Source of the DNA: Neophaeotheca triangularis
Lineage: Eukaryota
Reading direction: 5' to 3'
DNA length: 20,000 nt
Assembly: GCA_054600435.1 (NCBI GenBank)
Contig: BAAIJX010000060.1
Coordinates: 106,790 to 126,789, forward strand
Below, in pieces: positions 1-20,000 of this stretch (its first letter is position 1; each line of letters starts with the position of its first letter). The notes beneath the pieces were generated by a model. That model was not told where the DNA came from. It did no database searches and worked only from the letters and a program-made list of their open reading frames with translations. A program made the position numbers and the translations under genes.

Positions 1-1751
1 GTTTTCTGGAGTGGTCCGGACTCGAGAAGTGAGTGCATCGTCGCAAAACAATGGCAAGGGATCGCGTACTGACAATACACATAGGCCGCGCAAACGCAGC
101 ATGCATCCTAGCCACATACATGGTTCTCATCCAATCATGGCCGCCTCATCTAGCCCTTGCACCAATCGCGCAAATGGATCCACCGTGCATGCCTTTCCGC
201 GACGCCGGCTACAGTCAAGCCGACTACAGCCTGACAGTTCAGGATGTCGTTTACGGTGTGTGGAAGGCGAAAGAGGAGGGGTTGGTCGGATTGAAAGAGT
301 TCAGCCTGGAAGAGTACGAGAAATTTGAAAGGGTAGACATGGGCGACTTCAACTGGATCACACCCAGCTTCCTCGCTTTCGCAAGCCCACAACATCAGCC
401 AGTGGACGTGATTCAGCCTGGCCACCCACTCTACAGCACGCTTCCGCGATCATTGTCGGCATTGAGGCGCGACCAAACACTACCAACTCCGTTCAAGAAC
501 GTGCTCAGCCATTTCGTCGAGCGGAATATCGGTCTGGTGGTGCGCTTGAACTCTGAGCTCTACTCGCCTAGCTACTTCACGTCACTCGGCATCAAGCACC
601 TCGACATGATCTTCGACGACGGCACCTGCCCTCCGCTAAACCTCGTCCGCAAGTTTGTTGACCTGGCTCACCGCACAATTAACGAGAAGAAGAAGGGTAT
701 CGCAGTCCACTGTAAGGCCGGACTGGGACGAACAGGCTGCTTGATCGGCGCATACCTCATCTACCGTCACGGCTTTACTGCCAATGAGATTATCGCCTTT
801 ATGCGGTTTATGCGCCCTGGTATGGTCGTTGGTCCTCAACAACACTGGCTACATCTCAACCAAGGCACCTTCCGCGAATGGTGGTTTGAAGATACCGTCA
901 AGGCCCAAATCATCGCCTCCATGGCGCCCACTACCCCGACTCGCGCACAAAGATCTGCTAGCAGACGTCTAGCCAGCAACGGGCAGACATTCACCCCACC
1001 ACAAGGCGACCGCAATGCCGCGAACAACGTCAGCCCCCGTCGTTCTGCGCTCGGAGAAATCACAAACAATGAGCAAGCCGCCACATCCGCCCCCTACAAC
1101 AGTTCATCCGACGACAAGAGGGACCGCGTCGCCGACGAAAACCTCCCCGCTCCAACCCCTGGCCAACCGCGCAAGACCAGCAAGCTCTACGCCGGCAGTC
1201 GACGCGTCATGACGGAAAACCAACAACCCTTTGACGTCAAGCCCGACACCGAAGTCGTCACATCCCAACGCTCCGTCCACAACGATTCTGTAGACAACGA
1301 AGAAGACTACGCGCTCAAAATGCTAAACCGCAAAACCACGTCCCCAACAGCCAAAACCCCCTCCGCCATGAGCACCAACTCCGTCACCCGCTCCGGCAAA
1401 CGCCGCGCCGTCTCCTGCACCACAACAACCACAACGACCACCAAATGGGACGTCCCAACCGACACCGGTAGCGACAGCGAAAACCAACTCCCTCTCCGCG
1501 CAGGTTCCGAAGACGTGGACGTGGCTATGCTCGACCGCGTCAGCAGCCCGACTCGTGGTCCCAAAACTCCTTCCACCATGCGGTCTGGCAGCGGTATGGG
1601 CGGCGGTCTGAGCGTGGGGAAGCGTAGTAGTCCCATGCGCAGGAGTACAGAGAGCGGCGGTAACGGCAAGACTGGCGTGCGGAAGACGAGTGGCCGTGTG
1701 GGCAGTCTGGGGAGTGGGCAGCAAGGGAAGAGCGCGCAAAAGGCGGCTTAA
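1..1751 (+). CDS. CDC14: Dual-specificity protein phosphatase Cdc14, 5'-truncated by the window edge; exons 1-28 and 85-1751
   Basis: Catalytic HCKAGLGRTG (CX5R) motif, the DMIFDDGTCP acid loop, GDFNWITP and RFMRPGMVVGPQQ, followed by a Ser/Thr/Pro-rich disordered tail. Splicing out 29-84 gives ...VFWSGPDSRSRANAACILATY..., the conserved Cdc14 N-terminal domain segment. The ORF-track start at 33 lies inside the intron. Stop TAA at 1749-1751. Confidence 0.96.
29..84 (+). other. Spliceosomal intron of CDC14 (56 nt)
   Basis: 5' splice site GTGAGT at 29, branch site TACTGAC at 67-73, acceptor TAG at 82-84. Removal joins A+GC (Ser) and keeps the frame. Confidence 0.9.
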
Positions 1752-2509
1752 GAATACTCAAGAAGCTGGAAGCTGCTGAGGTGAGGAAGGATTGGGATTT
1801 CGTATTCTTTTGTTTTTCTCGGGATGTCGACTCGCGATGGCGTGGTTTGGGGCCCGGGTCTAGGCAAGCATGGCGCAAACGGTCTGGTCTGGAGTTTTGA
1901 GTCAAGTCACGGTCAGGGTGGCTTTGTTGCTTGTATCACCTTTTGGTTCCTTTTTGCTTTCGCGGCGGCGTTTTCCGCCGCACGGTTGGCCCAATATTAC
2001 GATGAGCGAGATGCGGGTGTCTTTTTTATTCTTGCTTACGTACATTCCGGTTACTGCCCCATGGTTGAAATCAGCATGGTTTGACCTCTTGCCTCTTTTT
2101 GCTTTTTGCACTCGTGTTGCTCGCATTGGCATAGTGGTTTGGCGAGATTGGTGGGGGTTTCCTTTCCTTTTATCTTGTCTTGGGCTTCGGGGGGTTGAGC
2201 TTGCGTGAATGAGTATACCACACCACGCATTGCAGGCTTTGGCAGTGAATTCGCATCTCCTCGTCTTTCTCTTCGTCTCTCTGTCTGCCGCTTTCTCAGT
2301 GTCTCGGGCCCTCTCTCCGTCCGTTTCGTTCATGACGACTGTTTTCGCTCTTGTGCCTTCGACCTTCTTTCCATGCCACCAAAAAGCTCCACCACTTGCT
2401 TAGCAACGGCAAAAAAACATCAAAAGAGATACAACAGGTGGGATTCCCACGTGGTCACCCACCGTAGTACTAATCACCCGCTTCAGTGCTTGAATATGGC
2501 AGAGCAAAA

Positions 2510-2624
2510 GGTAGGTAGGTAGGGTAGCTGTCCCGTATCGAGGTAGTAGCGTAGTAGCGTAGTACCTAGGTAAGGTGTAGGTAGGTACGGAGGTATTTAG
2601 GTACCTAGGTGGTAGGTAGGTAGT
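2510..2624. repeat. Degenerate GTAG/GGTA-rich low-complexity tract
   Basis: Runs such as GGTAGGTAGGTAGGGTAG, GTAGTAGCGTAGTAGCGTAGTACC and GGTAGGTAGGTAG are read directly from the sequence. Confidence 0.75.
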
Positions 2625-4896
2625 ATTCGGGGAAAGTAGCTTTAGTTAGTAAGCGTACTAAAGTAGTGGCAATATCACTACGGCCACACGGCTTCGCCGC
2701 GAGCCGTAGTAATATTGTGGATGCCTTAGATTCACTGAGCTCTGGTCGTATCTGGAAGCAACAGCTGTGTCTGCGTATATAGACATATATTTTCAATAAG
2801 AAGGTGCGATCGAGGAGATGGCTACAGCGTGGACATGTATCAAACTAACATAGCTCAAGTAATACCGTGACTCGGACCCGAGCACTTAGAAGTACCCTTT
2901 AGCTGGCTAGCTACCAGCTCTCGAAGCAAAATTTCACGACCAACATCAAGCTTCCCACTTGGTACCTTGTCTCCTTTCCCGCACTCTTACCGCCTAGACT
3001 GCGGATCCGCACATAGAAAACCAAAAAAAAAAAAAAGAAACCTCGAGCTTCGTAGGTAACGTACGTACGGCAGGCTGTCCAATCCGGACGCTCGACAGCG
3101 TGTCTACAAAGCACAACCCGACGTACCCTATTTCATCTCTACACCGATCCCTACCACTGTGCAACATACTTGGTTAGAACGGTTCCGGCCATTTTGGGGG
3201 TATGTCCAGGCAGGCACCCCAAGCTTGCCAGCTTCGAAAGCGGCAGTTGGGTAGGGTCGGTTTCGGGAGGTTCGCAGTGCGGTCTGTTGCGCCCAAGCAA
3301 CTTACAGCGCGAGCGAGGGGAGGTGATGACTTTTCTCGTGGAAGGGTAGGGAAGAGCTAGGTGTTCAAACCCCCCTGTTAACTTCGCTGGCCCTTTTTCA
3401 AACACCGTCTGGAGCCTCTGGTTCGGGCCCTCGTTGGAAATGCTCGCAAAAGCTGGGGACTGACCTGGGACTGGATTGTCTATCTACTGGAAAGCGGCAT
3501 CGACGATTTTCTCGTTCGGTCTTCCTCTGATGGACACAGCACTTTCGAGACTGGGCGAGAGTGCGAGGGTAAACCTGGTAGATTTGCTTCGCATTTCTAC
3601 GCCGGCGGTTCTGTAGGTGTGTGATGGACGGTTAAGGCGGACTGCGCGATCAGAACGTGGAAGGGTGGACTTTCATCTCCCGCTCGCTCTTGGGCGGTGC
3701 TTTGAAAGCCAGGGGAGACTTTTCGTAGACCTGTTATGACAGTCTAACCGCCCAGTCCATTCTTTTGAACCAGCAAGCAAGCTGGCTAAGTCAATCATGG
3801 CCGAATCACACTTCGCGTCCCCTGCGAACCCAAGCCCTTCCACTAATCTCTGGCGAGCAAGCCCTGCATTGGGGATCGACCATATAGCCATCACCGCCAG
3901 ACAAGCATCTGCGCTCCCACGATCTGTTAGCCCTTTATCCATTTCTACCCAACCAACTCGGATCGCTTCGACTCGAAGTCCAGGGCCCGCAATCACTAAC
4001 ATGCCAATGTAGCTATACACAAACAACCTCCAAGGCTACACTTAAGCCAGCGCCGAAGAAAAAAAAAGGCGCAGTCAATAAGCGGCCAAACCATTCCACA
4101 AGCCATCAGAGCCACGCCGACGAGCAAAACCACGCATCCAACCAAACACCAACCTCTCTCCTCTCCCCTCACGTCAAACTGTCCCCCATCGACATCCACG
4201 TCCACGGCACGCCCACCCCGTCTACACCCACTCCCCGCATTCTCCCTCCCACTCCCACCGCCCAAACCTCCAAACCTCCAAACCCCTCAACGACAAATAC
4301 AATAGTGCACCTCTCACCAAACCCTCCCACTCTGCTCGTCGGAGAAACGGTAAACGAGACCGCTCCAGAAACCCCGCCACCCTTCCTCGAGCAGACTGAG
4401 CCCGCGCACCTCAGAGAAATTGCAAAACTTGCTACTGAGACTGGGTATCTGTAGCTTAAGCGGTGCCGGCCATAGCTTTTGACAGCTTGGCGTTGACGTT
4501 GGTGTCGTCGTCGTCATCGTCGTCGTCGTTCTACTCGCAGTTGGCCAGTCCATGAATCTAGGGGGTCACGTGCCGGTCCCTCTGAAAGCGGCAGGCAGTG
4601 AACGAGCGAGCGAGTGAGGGGATGAGGCTGCGGAGGCTAGGAAGGCTGGGAAGGTGCTGTATAGGGCGCAAGGGGGAGGGGGGTGTAGTGCTAGCTATGC
4701 CCCCTTCGTGCCCTGCGGTGTTCCGTTCCGCTGCCGCCGTGGCGATGGAGCTCAAAAAGGGCGTCGGTTGTCTGCGTTGGGGGGAGCTGGGTGCGGTAGG
4801 GCTGAGGGAAGCATGCGCAGGTACCTGAATGAGATTGGTAGAATTGTCCGAAACGGGTTTCGAGTCCAAGTCTCTCTCTCGGAAGCCAGGCTTAGC

Positions 4897-4920
4897 GAGG
4901 GAGGGAGGGAGGGAGGGAGG
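4897..4920. repeat. (GAGG)6 microsatellite downstream of noxC
   Basis: Six perfect GAGG units. Confidence 0.85.
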
Positions 4921-5244
4921 AGGGGAGGCTGGCACATCGCTCCGAAACACCCGGGGTGGGGTGGGGTGAAGTTTAGTTGAGTCGAACTTGAAATACCTTA
5001 CACCAAAAGCTGCCCGATGAAAATAATCTCTGGGCGCAGCAAAAATCCCGTACCCCGAAACAGATCATTGATACCATCAGGTTGGACCAACAGACGCCTG
5101 ACTAAGCGCCACGCTACGCAAGCAAAAACCCCATCCATCCGTGGATCCATCCATTCTCGTCCATTGACAGGAGAAACCCGCACGGCCATTTCCACTACCT
5201 ACCTCCTCCCCCCGCGCCCAAAAAAACTACTAACCAATACGACA

Positions 5245-7585
5245 CTACCCAAAAACCTCAATCAAAAAATCATACCTAACCCTCCTCCCCTCGTGCCTCG
5301 CCCTGGCAGTAAGCATATGACATTTATCGCTCAAAATTTCCCCAACGACGGCAGGACCACAATAGAAAACCCCGACGCGTCGCTCGCCCGCGATTTCCGA
5401 GTCGGTGTCGTCGCGGAGCCCCTCGCCCGTGCGCTCAGCCGCGGCGATGATTTCCTCGTAGTGGGTCTCGAGGATGGCGTCGAAGTCTGGACGGCCGAAG
5501 TGGGAGGGGGCTTTGAGACCGGTGAGAGCCGAGTAGGGCGAGTCCGGGGTGCGGTAGCTGTCGAGGAGGTAGCGGAAAATGTGGGTTGAGATATTTTTGC
5601 GTTTGGCTGTTATGTGGGTGTTGATGTTGAGCTGGAAGGGGATGGTTAGTGAGGGCTGCTGGTGGAGAAGGGGGGAAAGGGAAGGATCGGGGGCGGCAAC
5701 TCACTTCGAGGTCTCCGCTTCTTTGCAGCGGTTTCGCGCCGTCTGAGGCTCGGTTCAACAGGTCCGCGAACCAGAGGAGGTTGTTCTTCTCCCTGACCGT
5801 CCAGTGAAAATCGACTCGGCGTTTGCAGGGCGGGAATTTCTCGGTTTCCGTCTCTTCCTCGCTACTGCCGGACCTTTCGCCTTCTTTTTCCTTCTTTGTG
5901 GCTTCGTCGTCTGTCGCGGTGAGGTCGCCGAGGCTAGCTCGGCGAGAATGGGAACGCGAGCGCGAGGTTCTGCGACTACCGGCACGGGAGACTGCGCGGG
6001 AGACGGAACGCGAACCCGGACGCGAGAGGGATCGGGAGCCACGACGCTCGTCCCAGGGGTTGGTGTCGGGGTCTAGTTGCGATTCCTCAATGTCCGTCAG
6101 GATGGCGGAAAAGGGTGTGATTCCGATGCCGCCACCGACGATGATGGAGTAGTCATAGTCGTAGAAGCGCTGAGCGGGAGCACCAAATGGACCGTCGATG
6201 CCGACTTTGATCGGGACTTGACGTTTGTCGCTGTCTTGACCAAGATCGCGGAGCTTGCGGGTCCAGTCACCATCGAATTTGATGTGGAGTTGAAGTATGG
6301 GGCCGCGACAGGAGGATATGGTGAAAGGGTGCCATTGGAAGAAGGAGAGGGCGGGGACTTGAAGGAGCACGTACTGGCCTGCCGAGTAGGGCCAGTCTTT
6401 ACCCGAGGGGTGTTTGCAAGTCAGTTCGGCGGTTTCGTCGTCGAGGACGCGCAGTTTGGCTGGTATGTGCATGAAGCCGCGGATCAAGCGCCAGGAGCGC
6501 TCGCCAACGACTAAAAGCGCGGGAAAAGCCAGCCAGTAGCCTAGCATGGGGTGGTAGAGGTATTGGGCGGTGCCGTGAGCGACAAGCATGGCGATCATGG
6601 GAAACATGAGAAGGTGGCCTAGTTGGAAGAGCTCGTAGCTGCGTTTTCGTACATAGGGGACGCTAAGGAGTGAGATTATCCAGAAAGAGCTCAGCGCTAC
6701 TATGCCTGTCCAGCCGGGGAGGGCGCGCACCCAGTCTACGTAGGACATGGGGACTGCATCTGGACCCAGCAAATCCTCCAGTTGCTGTTCCCGGGAGGGG
6801 CGGGTGCTGTAGAGCATATCGCCTGCCAAATGACCGATAGCGTGCAGTGTCGCAAAAAACAAACCCGCGCAAGCCATCTTGATGTGGAAGCTCTGAGTCA
6901 AGTCCCAGTTTGCAAAACGGCTGACGGTGTAGCTCCTGCGCATGAAGGTCGCAAAGTGTCGGCTCATACTAAGTAGCATGAAGAAGAGGGTCGGGTAGAG
7001 CACGCCGGCGCAAGTTTTGGCGAGGATGACACCCCAACCCAGTGCAGCGCGATAGGTAGGCCTTTGTAGGTAGCTGATCATCTGCCACAAACCAAAGGCT
7101 AACTGAAGCGCAACGACAAGGGCGACGAAAGCGTAGGTGGAGCCGTGGACAGCGACGTAAGCGCGGATTCTTCGACGCATGGGCAAGCCTTTCTCCTCGG
7201 CAGCATCGTCCTTGTCTTGCGAGGTACTATCCGTCTGCTTCTGACTCGGCACGTTCCAGCTCTTGACCTTTTCCATGAATTCGTCTCGCGCGATTGTGTC
7301 GCCGCTGTTGGGCATGAGGCTGCAGAGGAAAGCGTGCAAGCCATCGCCCTTGTGGCCCTTGCCGTCGGCCTTTTCAACATCTCTACCGCGCCGCGAAGGG
7401 TGATGGAGGTGGTGGGCTAGCGGTTCGGGGGCGAGCTCTTGGTGGACCTCGTGGAGTTTGGCCTCTAGCTCGCTGAATTCGATGGTGCCATTATTGTTGC
7501 GATCAATGTCGTCGAAGAAGTTGTTAATCTCCTCATCGGTGAGGGGTTTGAAGTCCTTGGCTGCGGTATCGATGGGGCCGTCCAT
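5245..7585 (-). CDS. noxC: EF-hand-containing NADPH oxidase (NoxC/Nox3; NOX5/RBOH-like), about 755 aa; exons 7585-5705 and 5631-5245
   Basis: Start MDGPID at 7585 (the upstream ORF extension is microsatellite). EF-hand loop DIDRNNNGTIEFSEL; ferric-reductase TM helices with paired His (FHIKM...TLHAIGH; GHLLM...VAHG); FAD motif WHPFTISS; GPFG; NADPH motif GGGIGITPF. After splicing 5632-5704 the frame continues LNINTHIT...TGLKAPSHFGRPDF...RVGVFYCGP...FLIEVFG*, the canonical NOX C-terminus. Confidence 0.92.
5632..5704 (-). other. Spliceosomal intron of noxC (73 nt)
   Basis: On the minus strand: GTGAGT donor at 5704, CTAAC branch (plus-strand GTTAG at 5645-5649), CAG acceptor ending at 5632. Removal restores the HFGRP and FYCGP motifs. 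Confidence 0.92.
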
Positions 7586-7658
7586 GGCCTGGGAGTGTAG
7601 TACAGGTGCAGGTGCAGGTGATGGCGTTTGGCTTGTTTCTCTTCCCACTTTGTTTGAA

Positions 7659-7760
7659 AGGGAGGGAGGGAGGGAGGGAGGGAGGGAGGGCAGAGAGTGG
7701 AAAGGAGTGGAGTGGAGTGGAATCCAAGGGAGGGCAGCAAAGCAAAGCAAAGCAAAGCAA
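7659..7760. repeat. Compound microsatellite (AGGG)8, (GGAGT)3, (AGCAA)5 in the noxC 5' region
   Basis: Units read at 7659-7690, 7704-7718 and 7736-7760. The tract is pyrimidine-rich on the noxC sense strand. Confidence 0.9.
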
Positions 7761-8580
7761 CCTACAAGCAGACGACAGACAGCAAAGGCAGCCAACACTT
7801 GGTGCGTTGTTTGCAAGCAAAGCGCCAATGCGCGTGGCCCTGAATAGCAACTTGAGAGTCAAGGAAGAGAAGTTGCCCTGAAGTGAATTCAAGATTCTTG
7901 TGTAGTACTTCTCGGCGCCATGTCTTGGGATGTCTTGGTATTTGGCTTTACCACGAGTAGGTAGACGGGTCTGACTATTCCATCCCTCCAGATGCGTGTA
8001 AATGATAGATAGACATGTATATGTTATGTTGTTGAAGGGTGCCACCCCAAGTACCTACGTGGTACAGCTTCCATAGCCCTATAGGTGTAAGGCAGAGATT
8101 ACTACTGAAGTAGGGTGTAAGGTAGAATAGACAGGCCGAGGCTTGAAGTCTTGATGCCAACGCTAGAGCTGACGTGGGGCCAAGGGACGGGAGGGAGGGA
8201 CCGAAGTGGGTCCAGGCTCCCCGGAATACTTACATAAGGTGAGTTATCAACTTAGTCACGTGGTTAGTGAAGAGTTCAAGTAAGGAACCGCATCGACAAC
8301 CTGCCATAGTCGACTTGATCGAGACATCCATATACTGACCTATCTAGGCATGCCATAAAGTATCCATCCACCCATGGCCCCTAGTCTGATTTAGTTAAGC
8401 GCCAGGTATAGTTACTCCAGGGCCAAGACCATCTCTGTTTGTCGTATTCGCTTTGGTCCATTTCTCGTATCTCACAACCAACCCAACCACTGTACCTAGA
8501 GATATAACTGCCACAAAACTCGCAACGAATCTCATCCTTCGTTTCCCTCTCTCTTTTGTTTTTTCCAGCAGCCACATATC

Positions 8581-10629
8581 ATGTCTCCTTTGAAGACACC
8601 CCTTCTATACGCAGCCTTAACGGCGTGCCTGGCTGTTGACAATATTTATGCGCATGCAAACAGCCCCGAGCAGATTGACATTGAGCAACTGCCTTTACCT
8701 CCAGTAGTCCAAAGTCTCGAGCCAGGATCATGTAACCGCTTCGTCAACTTCCACGACACTGGTTGCATAGGTCAGACTACTGGCCTCCAAGGTGGTAATT
8801 TCCTACCAGATGGCCGTCATGTCATGGCCACTGTCAAATTTGCCGGTGCCCCTGCTGCTCCAGACCCCAGGAGCATTTACCAAGGCCAGCAGCTCATCGT
8901 TATCAAGACGGATGGCACCTTCTTTCCTAACGGTGATTCATGGAAATGTCTTACTTGCGGTGTGCCTGAAAACCAGGCTATTGGCTTGGACCCTCACGAT
9001 ACCAAAAAATGGGGATACCCCCAAGCTTTCAAAGACGGGACACGCGCTCTCGCTGGCCATTACATTGTTGAATGCGAACGAGACTTCCCTCTGGTCAGCG
9101 ACGACTGCGGTCCGCAGCAGATTCACATCTACCCCATCCGCATGGAAAACACTGAGGAGGGGACCGGCCGTGGCGCAGCATTACGAGAGCTACGAATCCA
9201 CCCGGACGACACGCACATCGGTGTGAACGTCTTCAGTACTTCGGGAGGAAAGCTAGGCCAGACTGCATACATCGGACGCTTGCACTTCAACTCGTCACCA
9301 ACGACCGGCCTCCCGCTAGCCTCTCGATACGACATAGTCTCCGTAAACCAACTCCTCGACCCCAACAGCCCTCAGCCTGTGTCCGTCCAAGGCGACGAAC
9401 TCTTCATCAACAACTCCGCCATCAGCATAGGCGAGCTCCGCGGTTTCAGCGGCACAGGCGCCGAAGTCGTTTACATCGGCTACCCGCACGAATCTTGCAA
9501 CATCGACGTCTTCGCCGCCAACCTGCGCACAGGCGCCGTGCGCCGCCTAACCACCCATCCAGGCTACGTCGACCCCGTCCAGTTCTCCCCCGACGACGCC
9601 TCCATAATCACAATGGACACCCGCGGCAACTCGCGTGTAAACTTCATGTCCGGCATGCGATCCATTCCACCCGTTCTCGATCTTCTCACCGCCACCGCTT
9701 GCGCTTCCGTCCGCAACAACGGCCAACGCCGCTTCTTCCAGCCCTGGCTCCTCGGCGCCCAAGGCGACTACTCTCCTCACCCTGCCCGCGAACTCAACGC
9801 CGCGTCAACCGGCCGCCCCGGCACCGGCGCCATCAACGATCCCGAATGGAACGGCCGCGCAGACCCCTGGTTCTCCCCCGACGGCACGCAAATCCTTTAC
9901 TGGCAAGCCCAAACCCGCGCCCCAGCTTGCGGCAGCCCAAACCCCCTACCCTGCTACCCTTCCCACGAAACCGGAAACCGCAAAGAGCGCCTCATGCTCG
10001 CGACCCTCGGCGACCGCGCCCCCATCTCTACCAACAAAACCCTCACAACCCCAGCCCCAGACACCATCCCCTGGGCTCTCCCCTACAACCCCGGCACCAC
10101 GCCACAAAACCGCCCCCAACCGCCTCCCGGCACCTACAACCTCCCAGCCCCCTCCTCGGGCACCGCAACCGTCCACCTCACCTCTCCCTACCCTTCCCCC
10201 AACCAAGCTCTAACCTCAATCCACATCACCTACCACAACTTCTCCTCGGACAACAACCAAACCTTCCTAACCGGAACCCAAAACGCCACCCTCCTCCCAA
10301 CCAACTCCCCGACTCTGACACGCTTACACTGGACCTCAGACCTCCACTCCACCGACCGCGACGGCCGAGTACATGCTTCCCAACTCACGAGTCTCGGCGG
10401 TTTCGAACTGTCCATCGACGCGATGACGAACATTTTCCACGCGACCGGGACGCTGAAAACCGTGGTCGGGGGCAGGGAGTGGGAGCAGCCGGCGGAGGGG
10501 CAAGGAGTGGGTGCTGAAGAGCCAGAGAGTGCGAAGAAGGGTGGTTTTCTCGGGCCCTTTTCAGGATGGTGGGTTTCCGCTGATCGTGGTCGAGAAGCCG
10601 ACGAGCGGCGGCAGCAGATTTTAACGTAG
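8581..10629 (+). CDS. Secreted saponin-hydrolase-family protein (similar to fungal soyasaponin hydrolases), 682 aa, apparently intronless
   Basis: N-terminal signal-peptide-like segment (LLYAALTACLA). Blocks LPLPP, GNFLPD, GAPAAPDP.SIY.G.QLI..K.DGT.F.NGD.WKC.TCG, IGELRGFSG.G.E, ESCNIDVFA..L.TG.VRRLT.HP.Y.DP, SVRNNGQRRFFQP and WNGRADP.FSPDG match my recollection of 'saponin hydrolase precursor' proteins. FSPD repeats suggest a TolB-like beta-propeller. Confidence 0.8.
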   Translation: MSPLKTPLLYAALTACLAVDNIYAHANSPEQIDIEQLPLPPVVQSLEPGSCNRFVNFHDTGCIGQTTGLQGGNFLPDGRHVMATVKFAGAPAAPDPRSIYQGQQLIVIKTDGTFFPNGDSWKCLTCGVPENQAIGLDPHDTKKWGYPQAFKDGTRALAGHYIVECERDFPLVSDDCGPQQIHIYPIRMENTEEGTGRGAALRELRIHPDDTHIGVNVFSTSGGKLGQTAYIGRLHFNSSPTTGLPLASRYDIVSVNQLLDPNSPQPVSVQGDELFINNSAISIGELRGFSGTGAEVVYIGYPHESCNIDVFAANLRTGAVRRLTTHPGYVDPVQFSPDDASIITMDTRGNSRVNFMSGMRSIPPVLDLLTATACASVRNNGQRRFFQPWLLGAQGDYSPHPARELNAASTGRPGTGAINDPEWNGRADPWFSPDGTQILYWQAQTRAPACGSPNPLPCYPSHETGNRKERLMLATLGDRAPISTNKTLTTPAPDTIPWALPYNPGTTPQNRPQPPPGTYNLPAPSSGTATVHLTSPYPSPNQALTSIHITYHNFSSDNNQTFLTGTQNATLLPTNSPTLTRLHWTSDLHSTDRDGRVHASQLTSLGGFELSIDAMTNIFHATGTLKTVVGGREWEQPAEGQGVGAEEPESAKKGGFLGPFSGWWVSADRGREADERRQQILT

Positions 10630-11438
10630 TTTTGACGGGTGGCGACCTGGGGGGGTTTTTCTTTTGGGGAGACGGATAGGTGGGAATGTGTGTGTGTCGC
10701 GCTCTCTGACTTGCTTCTGCGTTTACGGCTGATGTGCTGTATGGGAGTTACCAGTTGAGCTGGCGCAGGGAGTTGGGGCGCGGCGAGCGGCGGCTCGTTT
10801 CCCGACAGATGGGAGGAAACAGAGCCACTGAATTATTCAGATGCCCTCGGTGGGGTCAGTTGGGGTCTTTAGGAATCGTGCTATGGCGAGCGTGGTCTTT
10901 GCTATCCTCGCGAAGGATGGGGCGTCTAGATCAAGGCTCCGGTTGGTTTCACATGACGCTATGCAGAGAGCAAAAGACACATTAGCTCGCGAGCTGCGGA
11001 CTGCCGAGCCGACGCGCTGCTATTCCAAGTCCGGTCGGGATGCAATGGTGCACTTACTCAATTAGTAGGGGGGCTGTAGGCGCTGACAGTGGAAGTACCA
11101 GTGATATTGCTTCCACGAGTCGATAGTTGTCGTCAGGTGGCAACGATCCAAATGATATTTTCACGCTGCGTTTCACTCTTGTTTGTATGTAGATGGTTCT
11201 TTTACTTCTGATTTAGATGAGGCAGGTTGAGCTGGGCTCGGTGCCAAGTAGCAGACCGCTCACACTTCATTGACATTCACTGCAAACCTGTATGGCCGAC
11301 CGAGGGCACAGCGCGACGGAATGAGACCCGGATCACTGGGTGTGGATTGAGCATCCTGGTTCCATTGTCTCCCTCAACCCCTTTCGACTGCTGTCAGGGA
11401 GCGTTCTGAGACCTTTAGTCAGGGCCAGCATCGACCTA

Positions 11439-13412
11439 CTACGCTAGAAGATTGCCATCGCTGTCGAGCAAGTCATACACTGACGCTTTCCGAGCAGATC
11501 TTTGGCCAGCAGGCATGTAGGTGCCGTCCCGACGAGTAACACCGCCAGACTTCCTTTTCTCACGCGACTGTTTGCTGGCAAAGGAGACAGTACCAATCAT
11601 CGCATGAAAGTTGGCCGGCCTCCTGCAAGAATTCCCATCCTCAGCGCCGTCGCTAAGGACATAGTGATTGGCCGGAGGCTGCTGAAAGCCAGCTGCACCT
11701 GTGCGGTTCTGCTTGTTGAGAAGATGTGCTACGGGGCTAGTGTTACCGGTGACGAAGAGCGTTTCTCCTGCAGTTGCGGCGTTCGAGGAGGCGTGCCCAG
11801 TGGCTGTCTGCACGGGAGATGTTACCCCCCTAACGCGAGCGTTGTTGGTTGCAATGAGCTTGGATGGGAGTTCCTCGGTGTCCTCGCTGTGCCCGTCGTC
11901 GTCGTCGTTCCCGATGATGAACTGCCGCCAGAGTGTATCGTGGTCTGGACTTTCCCGCGGTCCCAATGGCTCATTTGTAGTCGGTAGAGAAGGCTGTTGA
12001 TTGGCGAGGGCAAAAATTTGCTTCAGAGACTCTGAAGAGGACGGCAATCTTTCTTCGCTGCTGGCAAGGTCATGGCCTGAGATCAGAAGCTCCCCCTGCG
12101 TGCCAGCCCCCCTGGGTGTCGAGACTGAAGGTATGTCTCTGCCATGTTGGTGCTCCGCATTGAAGTTGGGTAAGGGTCGATGACTGCTTTCTGAGGTCGT
12201 CTGATGCTGGCTGGATGACCTAAGTGCAGCAATTGATTCGCCGCTGGGTGCCAATGGTTTGATATGCATCAACATGCGCCAAGTCGCTTCGTCATCATGT
12301 TCAATATACGCGGCGTTATCTGGGTCACCCAATGTATGCTGTCGCGGAGAAGTTTCAACTCCGTGTTGCGGTGGGGGGTTTTCTTTCTCGCTGCAGGGCT
12401 GCTGGGATCCAATGCTGGAGTCATGGCTTGTGTAAAGATCCATTGACGAAAGCACTGCAGATGGAGAAGGTGGGTCATCACTGTGAGACGTCTGTTGTGA
12501 TTCGGAGGGTTTTGGCTCATAGTGAGACTGGCAGGGCTGTTGTGGATGTGTAAGTGCGAAGGGTCGGGTCATCTGACTTCCAGCGAAAGCTGTGACAGAG
12601 GCAGCTGCTGCGTTCGATTCTCTCGATGGACCGACCGGCAGCAAGGGTATTTCTTCGTCTGCATCAAGAAGCATGGATTCTTCCGAAATTGGGCTGAACT
12701 GTTTGGATTCTCGCGTGCTGGGCGACTGGGAACGCTGTGTCTGCGTAGCAAGAGCTTCCGTGCCTATCCTGATGTGGATTTGATTGTCTTGTGGCAGCAC
12801 ATCATTTCCGAGGTAGGGCGGGTGCATCAAGTGATGTCGAAATAACGGACTAAGCTCGCGCTTCTGTGCAGGCTGAGGTCGTTGAGAGGCTGCTTTGCTG
12901 ATCTTGCGGCGTTTCCCAATCCGGTCCTTGTCCTTGTGCGAGGGGAATTGCATCTGCAGCGGCCTCGATGCATCAAGATGTAGCCAGTCAGATTGAGCCA
13001 GCAAGCGCTTGCGGGTGGCAAGAAGCAGCGCCTCCTCGTCCAGGATCTTCTTGGGACGGAGCATGTGCCTTGGGCGATCCGCATGTCTGGATGAACTTGC
13101 TTCTGATGGCCTTGTTGACCTTCTGCGGTTGTCCGCACTTGTGGTGACGTGGCGGCCTTCACCATCGTGGCGCAATGCTTTGGTGGCATGAGACAAATGC
13201 TGATGGGAGACCTGGTGTTCGTTGTTGGGCTCTAGCATCGACTGGATACCAGCATAACCCCCTGGTAAGTACAAAGGCTGGAAGGATGCTTTGGATCTCG
13301 GGGTTGCCTGCAGTGCCGCTCGTGCCTTTGCGAAGTGCGCCTTTTGCTTCTGCGTTACCGTCTTGCTCTTTGTTGAGGCGAAGCGGTTTCTGGCACCTCC
13401 AGTCCAGTCCAT
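11439..13412 (-). CDS. 657-aa mostly disordered protein with an N-terminal HEIP1/REDIC1(C12orf40)-like motif
   Basis: Long uninterrupted ATG-to-TAG ORF. N-terminus MDWTGGARNR...QKQKAHFAKAR; second ordered island LLATRKRLLAQSDWLHL...PLQMQF...DKDRIGKRRK; the remainder is S/P/Q/E-rich. The CDS call is strong; the family call is tentative. Confidence 0.8.
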   Translation of the reverse strand: MDWTGGARNRFASTKSKTVTQKQKAHFAKARAALQATPRSKASFQPLYLPGGYAGIQSMLEPNNEHQVSHQHLSHATKALRHDGEGRHVTTSADNRRRSTRPSEASSSRHADRPRHMLRPKKILDEEALLLATRKRLLAQSDWLHLDASRPLQMQFPSHKDKDRIGKRRKISKAASQRPQPAQKRELSPLFRHHLMHPPYLGNDVLPQDNQIHIRIGTEALATQTQRSQSPSTRESKQFSPISEESMLLDADEEIPLLPVGPSRESNAAAASVTAFAGSQMTRPFALTHPQQPCQSHYEPKPSESQQTSHSDDPPSPSAVLSSMDLYTSHDSSIGSQQPCSEKENPPPQHGVETSPRQHTLGDPDNAAYIEHDDEATWRMLMHIKPLAPSGESIAALRSSSQHQTTSESSHRPLPNFNAEHQHGRDIPSVSTPRGAGTQGELLISGHDLASSEERLPSSSESLKQIFALANQQPSLPTTNEPLGPRESPDHDTLWRQFIIGNDDDDGHSEDTEELPSKLIATNNARVRGVTSPVQTATGHASSNAATAGETLFVTGNTSPVAHLLNKQNRTGAAGFQQPPANHYVLSDGAEDGNSCRRPANFHAMIGTVSFASKQSREKRKSGGVTRRDGTYMPAGQRSARKASVYDLLDSDGNLLA

Positions 13413-15460
13413 GTTGATTGATGCCAGGGGGCCTCAAAGGCGAATCAAAACGGGCATCTCCACGACATGAGGTGGGGAAAATGGAATGCGGTGTAGCCTC
13501 CATGTATTGCTCTCGCGTGACGTTGGAATAAAGTTGATGGCGCCCTCACGTGCTTGGATACAAAACGGCAAGAGCAACCCAAGTTGGGTTGGATGTACCA
13601 CTTCATGGCTACCTTACCTACCTTACTTAGGTACTGTAGGTAACGTTCGTGTTCCCTACTAGTCTGATACAGTACCTACATTTGAATGTCCACAACTTGA
13701 TACTGATACCCAACTCGGGGGCCGTTTGAAGGTGCCTGGTACTCACAGCGGCCTCCATCTCGGTACGACCAATGGTCACGGTCCGTTCATGCTCATCTCA
13801 CTTCCCTCAGTCGTGCGACCTCGTTACAAACATGACTGCGACAGTCTCCTCGTGTGTTGTCTCTTTCTGCCTACAAGGCCGGGAACTCGGTCGTGGCAAC
13901 TAAATGGTGAAGTCGACTCTTCCGAATCCGAGCGCTTCTCAGTTCTGAGCCTAGGTGAGGCTAGTGCACTCCTTCGCGAGATGGATAATAGTATAGTTCC
14001 AGGGACTAGTAACTTATTATGCAGACACCCTTCGTTTACCAAGCTGACACTGGACAGCTGTGCGGAATTGACTGATTGGGTAACCCTACTGCATGGCGTC
14101 TTGGGCCTTGGCCGCCTAACAAGTACTTCCCGCTACTGCAAAACAACGTCTAGTTCCAATAGAATCAGACAACACGTGAAAGGCTGAAAGCCTCCTACAG
14201 CCACGCAGCCAAACGAATGGTCCGCAGCGGCTCGACATGCACCCATCCAACAGGCGTAACTTACATGAAAGCCATCAAAGACGCAGTCGTTCCCGCCAGG
14301 CTTGAATGGTAGGGGCGCCCTTCGCCTCCCTCATTGTATAATAATGCATGCCGTGGTTATTGCATTCTTGCAACATAGCGAAGCATTGGAACGACCGCTC
14401 ACTGTAACCAATTACATCTAATTACATCTTAACGTGATCTCTCCTTCCTTCGAGCGTGAACGTCGAGAACACAGGTCGATCTAGAAGAAGTTCTAGGTTC
14501 CTGTCGATCACTTCCTAAGAGGATAGCACAGATATCGCCCAGCGACCATACCTCCACCTCGACAAACTTTCCACTGCGCGTCACGAGGTATCAAGGTATT
14601 CGTGTTGCCTACCAGTAGGTACTGTATTGCCCTCGGAGCTCGACCGTTTGACTGGCGAATAGCGCCACCCGAACCTGGGCAGCGTACAGCCGTGACGATG
14701 ATGCACAGCGCATCTCGGGCCAAGAATCCAACGAATTGTAGATGGGGCGAAAATTTCGTAAAAGATGTACAGCTACAGTACCTATACCTAGCCCTGTAGT
14801 AGTCGTGTACTCGCGCTCATATCCCGAGCCCTTAGACCGACATCCTTAGTAATCAAGGTACCTATCGTCGTATCCTCAGCTTTTGCCTCTTACGCCAGTC
14901 AGAGCCTCCCGTTCCTCCTAGGGGAGCGATAAGACCAATAAGCCACGCGCTAGCACCGTCTAAGTCTAATAACATCACTCGGTCGAAATCTTCGGCGCTG
15001 CGTTGGTGGGGCCAACCCTTAGTACTACTAGTAAGTATGCCCCTCGTCCGCAGCCGGATGGATGCTTTTGTATGGGTGTTGGAAGTCTGGTTTGATGAGA
15101 CGACATGGACCGTACTATTATTTAATTACTAACGCATCGCTCATGTGGCCGTCTCCGAGGTAGGTTTATATACCTGAGCGCCTCTTCTTTCCATTATTGT
15201 TACTGCGCCCTAGACCTTCTCCAGACTCTCTCCAGACACTATCCCACACGTTTCCACATTTTCTCCTTCCCTGGCGTAACTACACCTGGGCACCCGTAGG
15301 TTACAACTTACCACCGGCAAACGACCGAACCGTTGCTCTTGCCCCACCACAACAATCCAGTCCTGCTTGATCTCTGTCCCTTCTTGAGCGCCCTTCTGTC
15401 CCGCAACACATATCCATCCGCAGCATTCATCAATAAGCATCACCTCCCTCGTTTCTCAAC

Positions 15461-16921
15461 ATGGGTGAAACAGACGTTCTCCCGGCCCAGAGGCCTCGCA
15501 CCATCCGCCGCCTGAGTTCTCGCGATGCCACCCAAGATTCGCTCAGCCTCCGGTCTCCCACCGTGGTCGTGCCGCCACAGCACCTCATGGCTCCCAGTGA
15601 TGCCCATGAGGTCGCGGCAGCCATGGAAATGGCGAGGCACGAGGTCGAAGAGTTCTCCTCGCCTCTCTCTACGCCAGAGACGCCCCCTGCGAGTGGCGTC
15701 ACCGACAAATACGCATTCGCTTTCGACATCGATGGCGTGCTGATTCGCGGCGGTCAAGTCATCCCAGAGGCGATTGAGGCGATGAAGGTACTAAACGGGC
15801 AGAACTCCTACGGCATCAAGATGTGAGCCTCCGACATTAAACGATCCAGGCGGAAGCCTTTGCTGACGATTGACAGTCCCTACATCTTCGTGACCAACGG
15901 AGGTGGTAAGACCGAGCAAGAGCGCTGCATTCAGCTTTCCAACCAGCTTGACATCGAAGTCTCCCCCGGCCAATTCATCTGTGGACACACACCCATGCGC
16001 GAAATGGCAGAGAAATACAACACTGTGTTGGTCGTGGGTGGAGAAGGCGAAAAGTGCAGGAATGTCGCGGAAGGATATGGGTTCAAGGACGTAGTCACCC
16101 CAGGCGATATCATCAAGGACAACGCGGACACCACACCATTCCGAAAGCTCACCGAAGAAGAGCTCAAGAACTCGAGAGACAGGAATTTCGCCGAGACCAA
16201 CATCGAAGCGATCTTTGTCTTTGCTGATAGCAGAGATTGGGCTGGAGACCAGCAAATCATCCTCGATTTGCTCATGTCCAAGAACGGCCGTCTGGGTACC
16301 AGGTCTGAAACCTTCGATGAGGGACCACCAGTCTTCTTTTCCCACAACGATGTCGTCTGGTCGGCCTCTCACGACCTCACACGTCTTGGCATGGGTGCGT
16401 TGCGTCTCTCCCTCGAGGCCATGTACAAGGCCGTTACCGGTAAACAGCTCAACACTACCGCTTTCGGCAAGCCGCAGATCGGTACGTTCCAGTTCGCTAC
16501 TCGCCTACTCAAGCAATGGCGTCGTGACACTCACGGCATCGACGCACCACCGGAGACTGTCTATTTTGTCGGCGACACGCCAGAGTCTGACATTCGGGGC
16601 ACGAACGAGTTCAACCAAACGAGCGAGAACACATGGTACTCGATTCTCGTCCGAACCGGTGTCTACGAAACCGGCACGAAGCCCAAGTTCGAACCCAAAG
16701 TCACTGTCGACACAGTCTTGGACGCTGTCTTGCACGGAGTGGAGCGGGAGCAAAAGAAAGAGATCCGGAACGATCTCAATGCCGACATGGGCAAGCTTCA
16801 GCTCAATGGCTCTGCAATCGCAGACAAGAGCGTGGAGAACACACCTGCCGCCTCTCGCGCTCAATCTCGCGCTCAAAGTCCGAGTCGCCACACCAAAGGG
16901 GTCGAAACGAACGGCGCCTGA
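15461..16921 (+). CDS. HAD-superfamily subfamily IIA hydrolase, CECR5/HDHD5/YKR070W-like, about 468 aa; exons 15461-15822 and 15877-16921
   Basis: Motif I FAFDIDGVL, motif II FVTNGGG, motif III FGKP, motif IV VGDTPESDI, and SILVRTGVY. The two track ORFs join via the 15823-15876 intron to give GIKIPYIFVTN. Confidence 0.92.
15823..15876 (+). other. Spliceosomal intron of the HAD gene (54 nt)
   Basis: GTGAGC donor, GCTGAC branch at 15862-15867, CAG acceptor at 15874-15876. The intron contains the in-frame TGA that ends the first ORF. Confidence 0.92.
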
Positions 16922-18829
16922 TCCGCGAGCTAAAAAGCAATCACCGCCGTACCCGTCTTATCCCTCGCTACTTGCCTGTTGATCCGGGGAGCATGGAGTT
17001 TAGCACTGTAAGGCGCCTGGTGCAGATGCTTTTTGATATCCTGGCGCACTAGTCGCCTCCAAAGTAGACATACATTGTCGATACAAGAAAACCCACATCC
17101 CCATACATTGCGGTATACAAAACAACAACGCCATATTATGACTTCACGGAAGCGGTTGGCATGGGAGGAACGGCTTTCTTTTCTATAGATTCCCCAATAA
17201 ACGTTCTTGATACACATCTTAATCGCCACCACCTCTATTGACCATGCCAGCGCCTAGTGTCTGTGTGTTGCTAAAGGAACAATAACCCCACCCGTCCTCC
17301 ACGGCCACCCTGCACCGCCATCCATCCACCTGCACCCTTCCCCGACCTCGCCAATCGAACCCCCACTGCGAACGACCCTCGCTTCTCCTCGTTGTGAAAA
17401 CCGGGGCCCCTGCAACGTCCTCTCCACACAACCCCGTCCCGCTATCGTCTCTAGCGCGCTCCTCCGTCCGACTAGTCTCCGCGGTTACACGGTAACATGA
17501 TCGCGTGAGACAACAAAAATTTGCGTGAGGGAACTAGAACTGGCGTTTGGAGAACGTGCGGCCCGATGGGTTCGGTTGGTTTTGGGAGTGCTCTGGAGTC
17601 AGTGTTGCGGCGTGTTAGCAAGGATAAACGTTAGCGTGGCTGGTGTCCTGGACATCTAAATAAATCTCGTGCTTTGGAAGTCGTCTTTCGTCTGTCTGCT
17701 TGTTGGTCTTCGCGGGTTTCGTGCAAGACGTGGTGGAATAATCCCGAGGGGCTTATCTGAGGCCCAAGATGGGGTTTCGATGGCTCGATCTTATAAACTC
17801 AACGAGAGTTGCGAGAGCTTCTGCGGATCCCGAGCCCCTTGAATTAGATCTTCCGCCATGCCTCGATTCGACTTTTCTGCGTTTTCTGCGTCTGGGGTGC
17901 GTGGTCTGGGGTACACCACAATAATGTGAGCGCGTTGCCGTGCCCTGTCGGCTTGCCTGTTTCGTGCAGCCGGGTTTGGGCTTCGACGTTTCGACTTCGA
18001 TTGAGTCGACTCAGATTGCTGTCTACGTACTCTAGAAACGGGTCATGCAAGGTCTCACGTGCACGGAATTTGAGCGATGGTGGTTGTTCGAAGCAACTTG
18101 AGCACGACCCAATCCTAACCACCTAACCAATGAAATCATCACTCCCTGCGCGTCTGGGTTTAGGTCGGGGTAATCTACTCGAGGCGCTCTCAAGGCTGTC
18201 AGGTACAAACAAAACCCGGTGGAGAGGCACTTTCACGATCCCGGGAAGTACGTTCGAGTGCGAGTGTATCAGACCCTCTTCGGCGATATCCACACTGGTG
18301 CCAACTTCCCGTGGGCAAAGGGTGAGTGAGAATGGGGTCTACAGCATGTCTCTTGTCGTTTGTAGTGCCGCCATTCCTGGCGAGCAAGCTGACATCTTCC
18401 ACAGTCCGCCAAGTCACCTGGGCGTGCCATTTGACGAAGAAGGTGGATTAGAGCTGGTATCTGTGCTGTATACATCCAAGAGCCAGGATCTCTTGTACGA
18501 TCCGCAGGTGTTCGAGACGTGACATGCAGACCCTGAACTTCAAGTTCCGTGGCCTCTCCTGCCTTGCAAGCTCGTCTTTACTCGTGCCAATATTGTCCTG
18601 ATTCATTGCGGATGATAACGATGGCTTCCCAATTACAACGTGCCGTCGCAGCAGCCCGGCCAAACGATGCTTTGAAAATTTTCCCCTATGCTTAAGAGGA
18701 CGAAGACTGACGCCGTGGTCAGTTTGCCTATCACGAAAGATCCGAGGTTCTGCAAGATCATGACACGAGCGAGGAGTACCTGTTGCAACAGCAGTTGAGG
18801 AGAATGGAGGCAAGGTGAGCGAATTGTGA

Positions 18830-18869
18830 TTTTTTTTTTTTTTTTTGGTAAAAAGCAAAAAGAAAAAAC
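18830..18869. repeat. T17 homopolymer plus A-rich low-complexity tract marking the fungal/bacterial junction
   Basis: T run at 18830-18846, then GGTAAAAAGCAAAAAGAAAAAAC, then an immediate switch to GCCCCC-rich bacterial coding sequence. Confidence 0.85.
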
Positions 18870-19484
18870 GCCCCCGCCCCGCCGCCCCCGCCCCGCCCCC
18901 GCATTGGCGGAGAGGTCGAGCAGTGGCCCAGAACTCTTGCGGATTTCGCGCCATGGTGGATGGATGAGGTAACGCTGGACCCGACCGGCGCGTCGGGCCG
19001 TGTGCCGCCGCGCGGGATGGCCAATGCCGCGCTGATGGTGGTCGTACCCATGCCCGAGGACATGGACGCGGAAACCGGCCGGTTGCTCTCCGGACCTCAG
19101 GGCAAATTGCTCGGCGCGATGCTGCGCGTGATGGGGCTGGGCGAGGAAGATTGCTATTTTGCCGCCGCCCTGCCCCGCGCGATGCCCGCGCCCGATTGGG
19201 ACCATTTGCGCGCCGAAGGCATGGGAACGGTGCTGGCCCATCATATCGCGCTGGCCGCCCCGCGCCGCCTGCTGCTGCTTGGAGACCGCATTCTGCCGCT
19301 GCTCGGCCACGACCCATCGCAAAAGCCTGCACATTTTCCGCTAATTAACCAATGTAATGTAGGGGATCCGGGGCAAGACGCGGGTGGCGTCTCGGTTCTG
19401 GCGGCTCAGGATCTGGGCATGTTGCTGGAAAATCCCCGGCGCAAGGCCGGGTTCTGGCGCGCCTGGCTCAATTGGGCGGATTAA
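18870..19484 (+). CDS. Bacterial uracil-DNA-glycosylase-like (family-4 fold, degenerate) protein, 5'-truncated at the junction
   Basis: The frame is open upstream of the track ATG (18960): APAPPPPPRPRIGGEVEQWPRTLADFAPWWMDE... It continues LMVVVPMPEDMD...LLSGPQGKLLGAMLRVMGL...YFAAALPR...HHIALAAPRRLLLLG...LLENPRRKAGFWRAWL*, which parallels the family-4 UDG layout as recalled for Novosphingobium/Erythrobacter proteins. Confidence 0.78.
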   Translation, partial: APAPPPPPRPRIGGEVEQWPRTLADFAPWWMDEVTLDPTGASGRVPPRGMANAALMVVVPMPEDMDAETGRLLSGPQGKLLGAMLRVMGLGEEDCYFAAALPRAMPAPDWDHLRAEGMGTVLAHHIALAAPRRLLLLGDRILPLLGHDPSQKPAHFPLINQCNVGDPGQDAGGVSVLAAQDLGMLLENPRRKAGFWRAWLNWAD

Positions 19485-19549
19485 TTCGGACGGATTGGGG
19501 TTTGGTTTTGCGGCAATGGGATCGACTGACAGGGGGACGACTGTGCGCC

Positions 19550-20000
19550 TTGCGTGTTGAGTCCACGCGCGCTGTGCGCGGTCGCTCATTGCGCCTGCAT
19601 GCTGCCCTTTGCGCCCTTGCCGGATTTGCGGGCATGGCCGCTCCGCAACCCGCCGCCGCCAACAGCGCCGCTGCCGATTATTTCATGAGCCGCGTCGCGC
19701 GCTCGGCCGTGCCCAAGCTGCTGACGGAAGATGAGCGCGGCTGGTACAAGGATATTTTCGGCGCGATCAAGCGGCAGGATTGGACGCGCGTCCAATCCAT
19801 GTTTGCCGAGCGCCCCGATGGCCCGCTGCATGGTTCTGCCCGTGCGGAATATTATCTGGCCCCCGGTTCGCCGCGTATCGACCTGCCCACGCTGACCGAC
19901 TGGCTCAACGCCAATCCGACCCTGCCGCAGGCTGAGCAGATCGCCGCTCTGGCGGTAAAACGCGGCGGTACTGCGCTGCCCAGCCTGCCCATGCCGCAGG
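19550..20000 (+). CDS. Bacterial lytic transglycosylase (SLT-domain protein), N-terminal region; runs off the window, start codon uncertain (TTG 19550 or GTG 19574)
   Basis: Open frame missed by the ORF track because it has no stop in the window. Signal peptide ...RLHAALCALAGFAGMAAPQPAAA|NSAAADYF, then VPKLLTEDERGWYKDIFGAIKRQDW...DGPLHGSARAEYYLAPGSPRIDLPTLTDWL...LPQAEQIAALAVKRG, as recalled for sphingomonad lytic transglycosylases. The catalytic SLT domain is not inside the window. Confidence 0.78.
   Translation, partial: MRVESTRAVRGRSLRLHAALCALAGFAGMAAPQPAAANSAAADYFMSRVARSAVPKLLTEDERGWYKDIFGAIKRQDWTRVQSMFAERPDGPLHGSARAEYYLAPGSPRIDLPTLTDWLNANPTLPQAEQIAALAVKRGGTALPSLPMPQ

Follow-up and report, generated by a model that had tools for sequence, protein, structure and literature searches.

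Contamination from cultures, from extraction and from shared platforms, together with chimeric sequences made in silico, is among the subjects reviewed in PMC8862208. In contaminant-chimeric contigs of eukaryotic assemblies, foreign prokaryotic DNA ends a host contig, and composition and gene structure change abruptly. A gene is cut at the join, depth differs greatly between the two parts, and free bacterial DNA from other sources is identical to the foreign part. The locus described here lies at the right-hand end of the 20,000-nucleotide stretch of DNA that we analysed (the window) and resembles such contigs in each of these respects. It differs from the typical case in that the join could be placed to 11 bases, which are common to a fungal C-rich run and to the codons of a bacterial proline-rich linker.

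Novosphingobium appears among the reagent and laboratory contaminant genera listed in PMC4228153. As would be expected of "kitome" bacteria such as Novosphingobium and Sphingomonas, the foreign part of our locus has its best named matches in Novosphingobium, and identical DNA occurs in the sequencing runs of unrelated organisms and in metagenomes. The case differs from that of the kitome in that the culture or the environment of the isolate is here an equally possible source of the bacterium. As in bacterium-to-fungus horizontal gene transfer, bacterial genes adjoin fungal genes on one record. Unlike such a transfer, the bacterial genes have a depth unequal to that of their flanks (24-fold lower, from contig means), with no bridging contig. 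Also unlike a transfer, the fungal locus occurs without the insert in a public run (X1, below), the first bacterial gene is truncated, and the foreign DNA has no differences from that of the free bacterium and no host adaptation. We consider it very probable that the join between fungal and bacterial DNA is an assembly artefact involving a low-level Novosphingobium-like contaminant, and not a gene transfer.

The fungal side of the window comprises positions 1-18889. A Pfam search of the long frames in the left part returned eukaryotic domain sets. A dual-specificity phosphatase with a DSPn N-terminal half is encoded there, as is a protein of the ferric-reductase/NADPH-oxidase type (FAD_binding_8, Ferric_reduct and a weak EF-hand match). 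According to a preliminary description of this DNA the fungal genes end by 16921, and the stop codon of the last clear one, a HAD-superfamily hydrolase, is indeed found at that position. The hydrolase frame has 1908 homologues, the best at 93% identity. Among the 120 of these that were listed, all organism-named matches are fungal (80-89% identity) and nearly all belong to the Dothideomycetes, including Elasticomyces, Baudoinia, Friedmanniomyces and Pseudocercospora. The features that close the fungal side are as follows.

15827-16921, plus strand: HAD-superfamily hydrolase (TIGR01456-type), last clear fungal coding stretch; Pfam Hydrolase_6 and Hydrolase_like; stop codon 16919-16921
16922-18829, no strand assigned: fungal DNA with no gene assigned; covered from 17740 on by the high-depth fungal contig of X1
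18830-18846, plus strand: T17 homopolymer; fungal side, within the match of the X1 fungal contig
18850-18869, plus strand: A-rich tract; fungal side, within the X1 fungal contig match and unmatched by bacterial contigs
18870-18889, plus strand: C-rich run closing the fungal match; the X1 fungal contig agrees to 18889 and then departs from the window

The open reading frame at 18127-18522 had no Pfam match. A stretch of 66 bases (18075-18140) also matches a second X1 contig (32802 bases, depth 124.9), with three differences and loose ends on both sides, and resembles a short, dispersed fungal repeat. Two further frames, 8500-10629 on the plus strand (709 amino acids, with a signal-peptide-like start) and 11439-13433 on the minus strand (664 amino acids), are uninterrupted and matched no Pfam family at E <= 0.001; their products would be fungal proteins of unknown family.

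In a count of runs over the 20,000 nucleotides no homopolymer was longer than the T17 tract, and an A14 at 3023-3036 was the one other run of at least 10. The succession of a T17, an A-rich tract and GC-rich DNA given in the preliminary description is present in full, and the T-run is exactly 17 bases long. GC content is 55.0% in 1-18829 vs 66.5% in 18870-20000. Since all 354 overlapping 1131-base segments of the fungal part stayed at or below 63.4%, the step is larger than local fluctuation. Third-codon-position GC is likewise higher on the right, at 73-74% in the two right-hand open reading frames vs 66-67% in three fungal ones. Directly 5' of the T17, the bases at 18816-18829 resemble a 5' splice donor (AAG|GTGAGC), and none of the short open reading frames in 18530-18830 has a family match.

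To the right of these tracts are two tandem, intron-free bacterial genes on the same strand, as was first described.

18879-19484, plus strand: 5'-truncated bacterial gene of the uracil-DNA glycosylase (UDG) superfamily, corresponding to residues 62-262 of the 262-residue homologue P0001; stop codon 19482-19484
19574-20000, plus strand: 5' part of a predicted SLT-domain lytic transglycosylase gene of about 600 amino acids, which runs off the window; homologues carry PF01464

The frame opening with the codon at 18879 was identical to P0001 residues 62-262 at 196 of 201 positions (BLASTP). Because residue 62 of 262 is the first to align, the gene lacks about 61 N-terminal codons. The cut falls in a Pro-rich linker, which is visible in both P0001 and P0002, and the earlier placing of the cut in such a linker is thus borne out. 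The UDG-like proteins have an N-terminal domain, a Pro-rich linker and a UDG-like domain, in that order. The fragment matches Pfam PF03167 (UDG superfamily) above the gathering cut-off (29.1 bits vs a cut-off of 24.3, E 1.2e-06). With the NCBIfam model for family-4 uracil-DNA glycosylase (TIGR00758) the window fragment and the full-length P0001 alike score 31 bits, below the cut-off of 125.3. Judged by these models, the predicted product is a divergent UDG-fold protein and not, by the NCBIfam test, a family-4 enzyme.

This protein has 417 homologues of 106-338 amino acids; P0001 is the best, and other relatives have 78-82% identity. All organism-named matches among the 120 listed of the 417 are from Novosphingobium or a Sphingomonadales metagenome-assembled genome (MAG), at 49-55% identity. 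A search of genome contigs with the same protein gave a single weak match, to an Actinomycetota MAG, with 40% identity over 33 residues.

The place of the join could be narrowed considerably. Metagenome contigs were scanned with an alignment of the UDG-like proteins, giving 80 loci (L002-L081), and positions 18001-20000 of the window were compared with these loci by blastn. In the three closest (L002, L003 and L004; 77-79% identity) similarity begins at 18879 or 18880 and continues to the end of the window or nearly so. None of the 71 blastn matches extends left of 18875, though upstream DNA was there to be matched (about 3 kb of it in L003). The join itself can be described in one line.

18879-18889, plus strand: join, the 11 bases CCGCCGCCCCC, which fit fungal and bacterial contigs alike; the fungal match ends at 18889, and the matches of the bacterial contigs of runs X1, X2, X4 and X8 begin at 18879

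The preliminary description had put both the switch to bacterial DNA and the junction at the poly-T. This proved incorrect on both counts: the bacterial DNA starts at 18879, so that the T-run, the A-rich tract and the opening bases of the C-rich run are fungal, and the join at 18879-18889 lies 33 bases past the end of the T-run. Read in the bacterial frame, the A-rich tract gives KAKRKNAPA, which is faintly like the RAKPE of P0001. We attribute this likeness to chance, as 18879 is exactly where the bacterial contigs and relatives part from the window. A repeat search of 17000-20000 returned short, two-copy, chance-like matches and no direct, inverted or terminal repeats or target duplication at the join, in agreement with the earlier remark that no transposon end is visible.

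Evidence on the two parts separately comes from public sequencing runs. The query was 17740-20000, half fungal and half bacterial, and the share of a run is the fraction of sampled words found in it. The search listed 24 runs, of which 20, from 13 studies, contain the stretch in whole or in part. The highest share, 0.90, is that of X1 (organism A; its contigs total 33 million letters), the sole listed run with the fungal half. Seven runs (X2-X8) have a share of 0.50, and twelve others, air, marine plankton and groundwater among them, have shares of 0.05-0.38. Contigs of X1, X2, X4 and X8 were aligned to the query; the runs at 0.05-0.38 are represented by their search shares alone and were not used for habitat. 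The run data are Logan contigs, in which depth is one mean per contig, rare variants are dropped and a filter omits some records. We infer that X1 is the data set behind the assembly, or that it closely represents it.

In X1 the two parts of the window are on separate contigs. The fungal contig (33655 bases, depth 129.6) covers 17740-18889 with no gaps and with three differing letters in 1150. Past 18889 it has a loose end unlike the window; the match occupies its own coordinates 15016-16165, and about 17.5 kb more follows. The bacterial contig (978 bases, depth 5.31) covers 18879-19853 with no differences, its remaining three letters, beyond 18879, having no alignment to the window. The last 147 bases of the window (19854-20000) have no cover in X1. 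The depth of the bacterial contig is thus about 4% of that of the fungal one, a 24-fold step. No contig record bridges the join among the Logan contigs of X1, from which rare bridging reads could have been dropped.

In each of three further runs, X2 (organism B), X4 (organism C) and X8 (a hot-springs metagenome), a single contig of 3.8-4.3 kb covers 18879-20000. These contigs show no differences in 1122 bases and do not match the window left of 18879. They share a 30-letter loose end before 18879, and its translation by eye, PPPMMRAKPE, is the native upstream part, found in P0001 ahead of the linker prolines. Because the fungal locus, at full depth, and the bacterial fragment, at about 4% in X1 and at various depths in unrelated samples, each have their own other continuation, we interpret the join as an artefact. 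The absence of any difference from the free bacterial contigs implies that no amelioration has taken place; this was also the earlier impression, and the GC contents of 66.5% and 55.0% given above agree with it.

Several expectations of the preliminary description can be assessed with these contigs. Its preferred reading, a chimeric join with a contaminant through low-complexity sequence, gains support from the separate contigs, the depth step and the native bacterial continuation in X2, X4 and X8. It had proposed comparing depth on each side, and the comparison, made on the X1 contigs, gave the step reported above. Its proposed test of whether host and foreign DNA separate was likewise answered by distinct X1 contigs, of which the fungal one continues into other sequence. 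It had also placed a bacterium in the sequenced sample, and X1, which alone among the listed runs holds the fungal half, holds the bacterium at a depth of 5.31.

Two findings count against the artefact reading. The X1 fungal contig is not identical to the window, the three letters in 1150 being at variance, so that X1 may not be the data set behind the record, and an 11-base microhomology would also fit a real insertion by end joining. The three differences may be located in or near the C-rich run at 18870-18889; if they fall in this low-complexity zone, the fungal-side part of the shared stretch would be imperfect.

The observed structure could also be caused by a very recent, real horizontal insertion of Novosphingobium DNA into the fungal chromosome. 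It would have occurred through microhomology-mediated end joining and be carried by the sequenced strain or clone, or by a minority of nuclei. Microhomology is common at real end-joining insertions, and 11 bases of it are present at this join; the window itself is one continuous sequence, and contigs may hide rare bridging reads. If true, this would be a transfer of DNA from a bacterium to a fungus caught at the moment of insertion, with no differences from the donor. The contigs argue strongly in the other direction. An insertion should share the depth of its flank, and the depths in X1 are 5.31 for the bacterial contig and 129.6 for the fungal flank. In place of the bacterial DNA the X1 fungal contig has about 17.5 kb of other sequence, and the bacterial DNA is on a contig of its own. 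Three unrelated runs carrying the native upstream part have no differences in 1122 bases, the first gene is cut, and no promoter, intron or compositional adaptation is seen. We therefore regard a real insertion as highly improbable. The preliminary description had offered it as an alternative, and the depth step, the separate contigs and the lack of a bridging one leave that alternative very unlikely.

Even with an artefactual join, the bacterium could be a genuine associate of the fungus, living on the hyphae or inside them or accompanying the isolate, instead of a contaminant from reagents, water or the laboratory. It is present in X1, the sole listed run with the fungus, and the fungal side is closest to the Dothideomycetes. 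Several of the named Dothideomycete genera among the matches are rock-inhabiting black fungi, which grow slowly and are often hard to free of bacteria. A partner specific to this fungus is made less likely by the occurrence of the identical 1122 bases in runs from two other organisms and in the hot-springs metagenome. The distribution of at least part of the stretch over 20 listed runs and 13 studies (four of the runs aligned), with air, marine plankton and groundwater included, points the same way. Novosphingobium is moreover a genus reported as a reagent and laboratory contaminant in PMC4228153. We consider a genuine association unlikely.

The artefact that we favour could have arisen in the following way. 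The DNA sequenced for a fungus of the Dothideomycetes would have included that of a Novosphingobium-like bacterium, at about 4% of the depth of the fungus. At the fungal locus a T17 and an A-rich tract are followed by a C-rich run, and the bacterial fragment would open inside the very GC-rich codons of its proline linker. The 11 common bases (18879-18889) would have allowed the assembly to join fungal and bacterial sequence there, through either an in-silico misjoin at low-complexity sequence or the assembler's use of a single chimeric molecule or read. Beyond 18889 the true fungal sequence would then be the other continuation, and the true bacterial sequence would run upstream of 18879 into the 61 missing codons.

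The second of these origins, a chimeric molecule made in the wet laboratory by ligation or by PCR template switching at the C-rich run, and not by the assembler, is a variant of the artefact reading to which we give somewhat less than an even chance. Assemblers of the usual k-mer or overlap kind need an overlap far longer than 11 bases to make a join unaided, and chimeras are known to arise by template switching at short GC-rich homologies; both considerations favour a wet-laboratory origin. If a chimeric molecule made the join, a few bridging reads are to be expected in X1. The contig data fit an in-silico and a wet-laboratory join alike, and the fungal match may be imperfect in its last bases, given the three differences, so that an error of the assembler in low-complexity sequence is also conceivable.

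For curation of the record, an artefactual join means that at least the last 1.1 kb are to be trimmed and that the assembly is to be screened for further Novosphingobium-like contigs. Otherwise, comparative studies would take the two bacterial genes for genes of the fungus or report them, falsely, as transfers from bacterium to fungus. The case also shows that the contigs of public runs can by themselves suffice to locate a low-complexity join within a few bases and to test it.

The bacterial part was characterized further through its gene order. Of the 80 metagenome loci, 63 extend 500 bases or more beyond the UDG-like match on its downstream side; the other 17 were too short and were left out of the count. 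A homologue of the second open reading frame starts no more than 600 bases downstream, on the same strand, in 62 of the 63, the exception being L035. As 62 loci keep the UDG-like gene followed by the SLT gene, the fragment is an unrearranged piece of bacterial chromosome. The same gene order had been given as native to sphingomonads in the preliminary description and is a real feature of these related loci. The pairing of UDG-fold and SLT genes persists down to 43% protein identity in the 62 of 63 loci, a tight linkage.

Novosphingobium belongs to the Sphingomonadaceae, within the Sphingomonadales. Since the best named matches of both open reading frames are to this genus, the original assignment of the DNA to a Sphingomonadales-like source can be narrowed to Novosphingobium. 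From its sequence, 18879-20000 is chromosomal DNA of a Novosphingobium-like bacterium, the call at the genus level coming from two protein fragments in 1.1 kb without a 16S gene. A distant-mode blastn search of a plasmid collection with 18879-20000 gave no match. A scan of 18700-20000 for promoters and terminators found no promoter-like sites and one terminator-like site (the mean for shuffled sequence was 1.4).

The second open reading frame has about 142 codons inside the window, and this portion by itself has no Pfam match. Its 118 homologues are among longer proteins of about 450-675 amino acids, and PF01464 is present in 114 of them. The NCBIfam lytic-transglycosylase models match P0125 at residues 387-523, for which the corresponding DNA lies past the end of the window. 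The best named relatives are from Novosphingobium sp. SG751A and Novosphingobium sp. KACC 22771; against residues 1-105 of the 571-residue protein of the former, 96 of 105 positions (91%) are identical. The start of the SLT gene is uncertain, the candidates being a GTG at 19574, which is followed by a signal-peptide-like stretch, and an ATG at 19685. The relative from a named Novosphingobium is annotated from the methionine equivalent to 19685, and several longer relatives align from near 19574.
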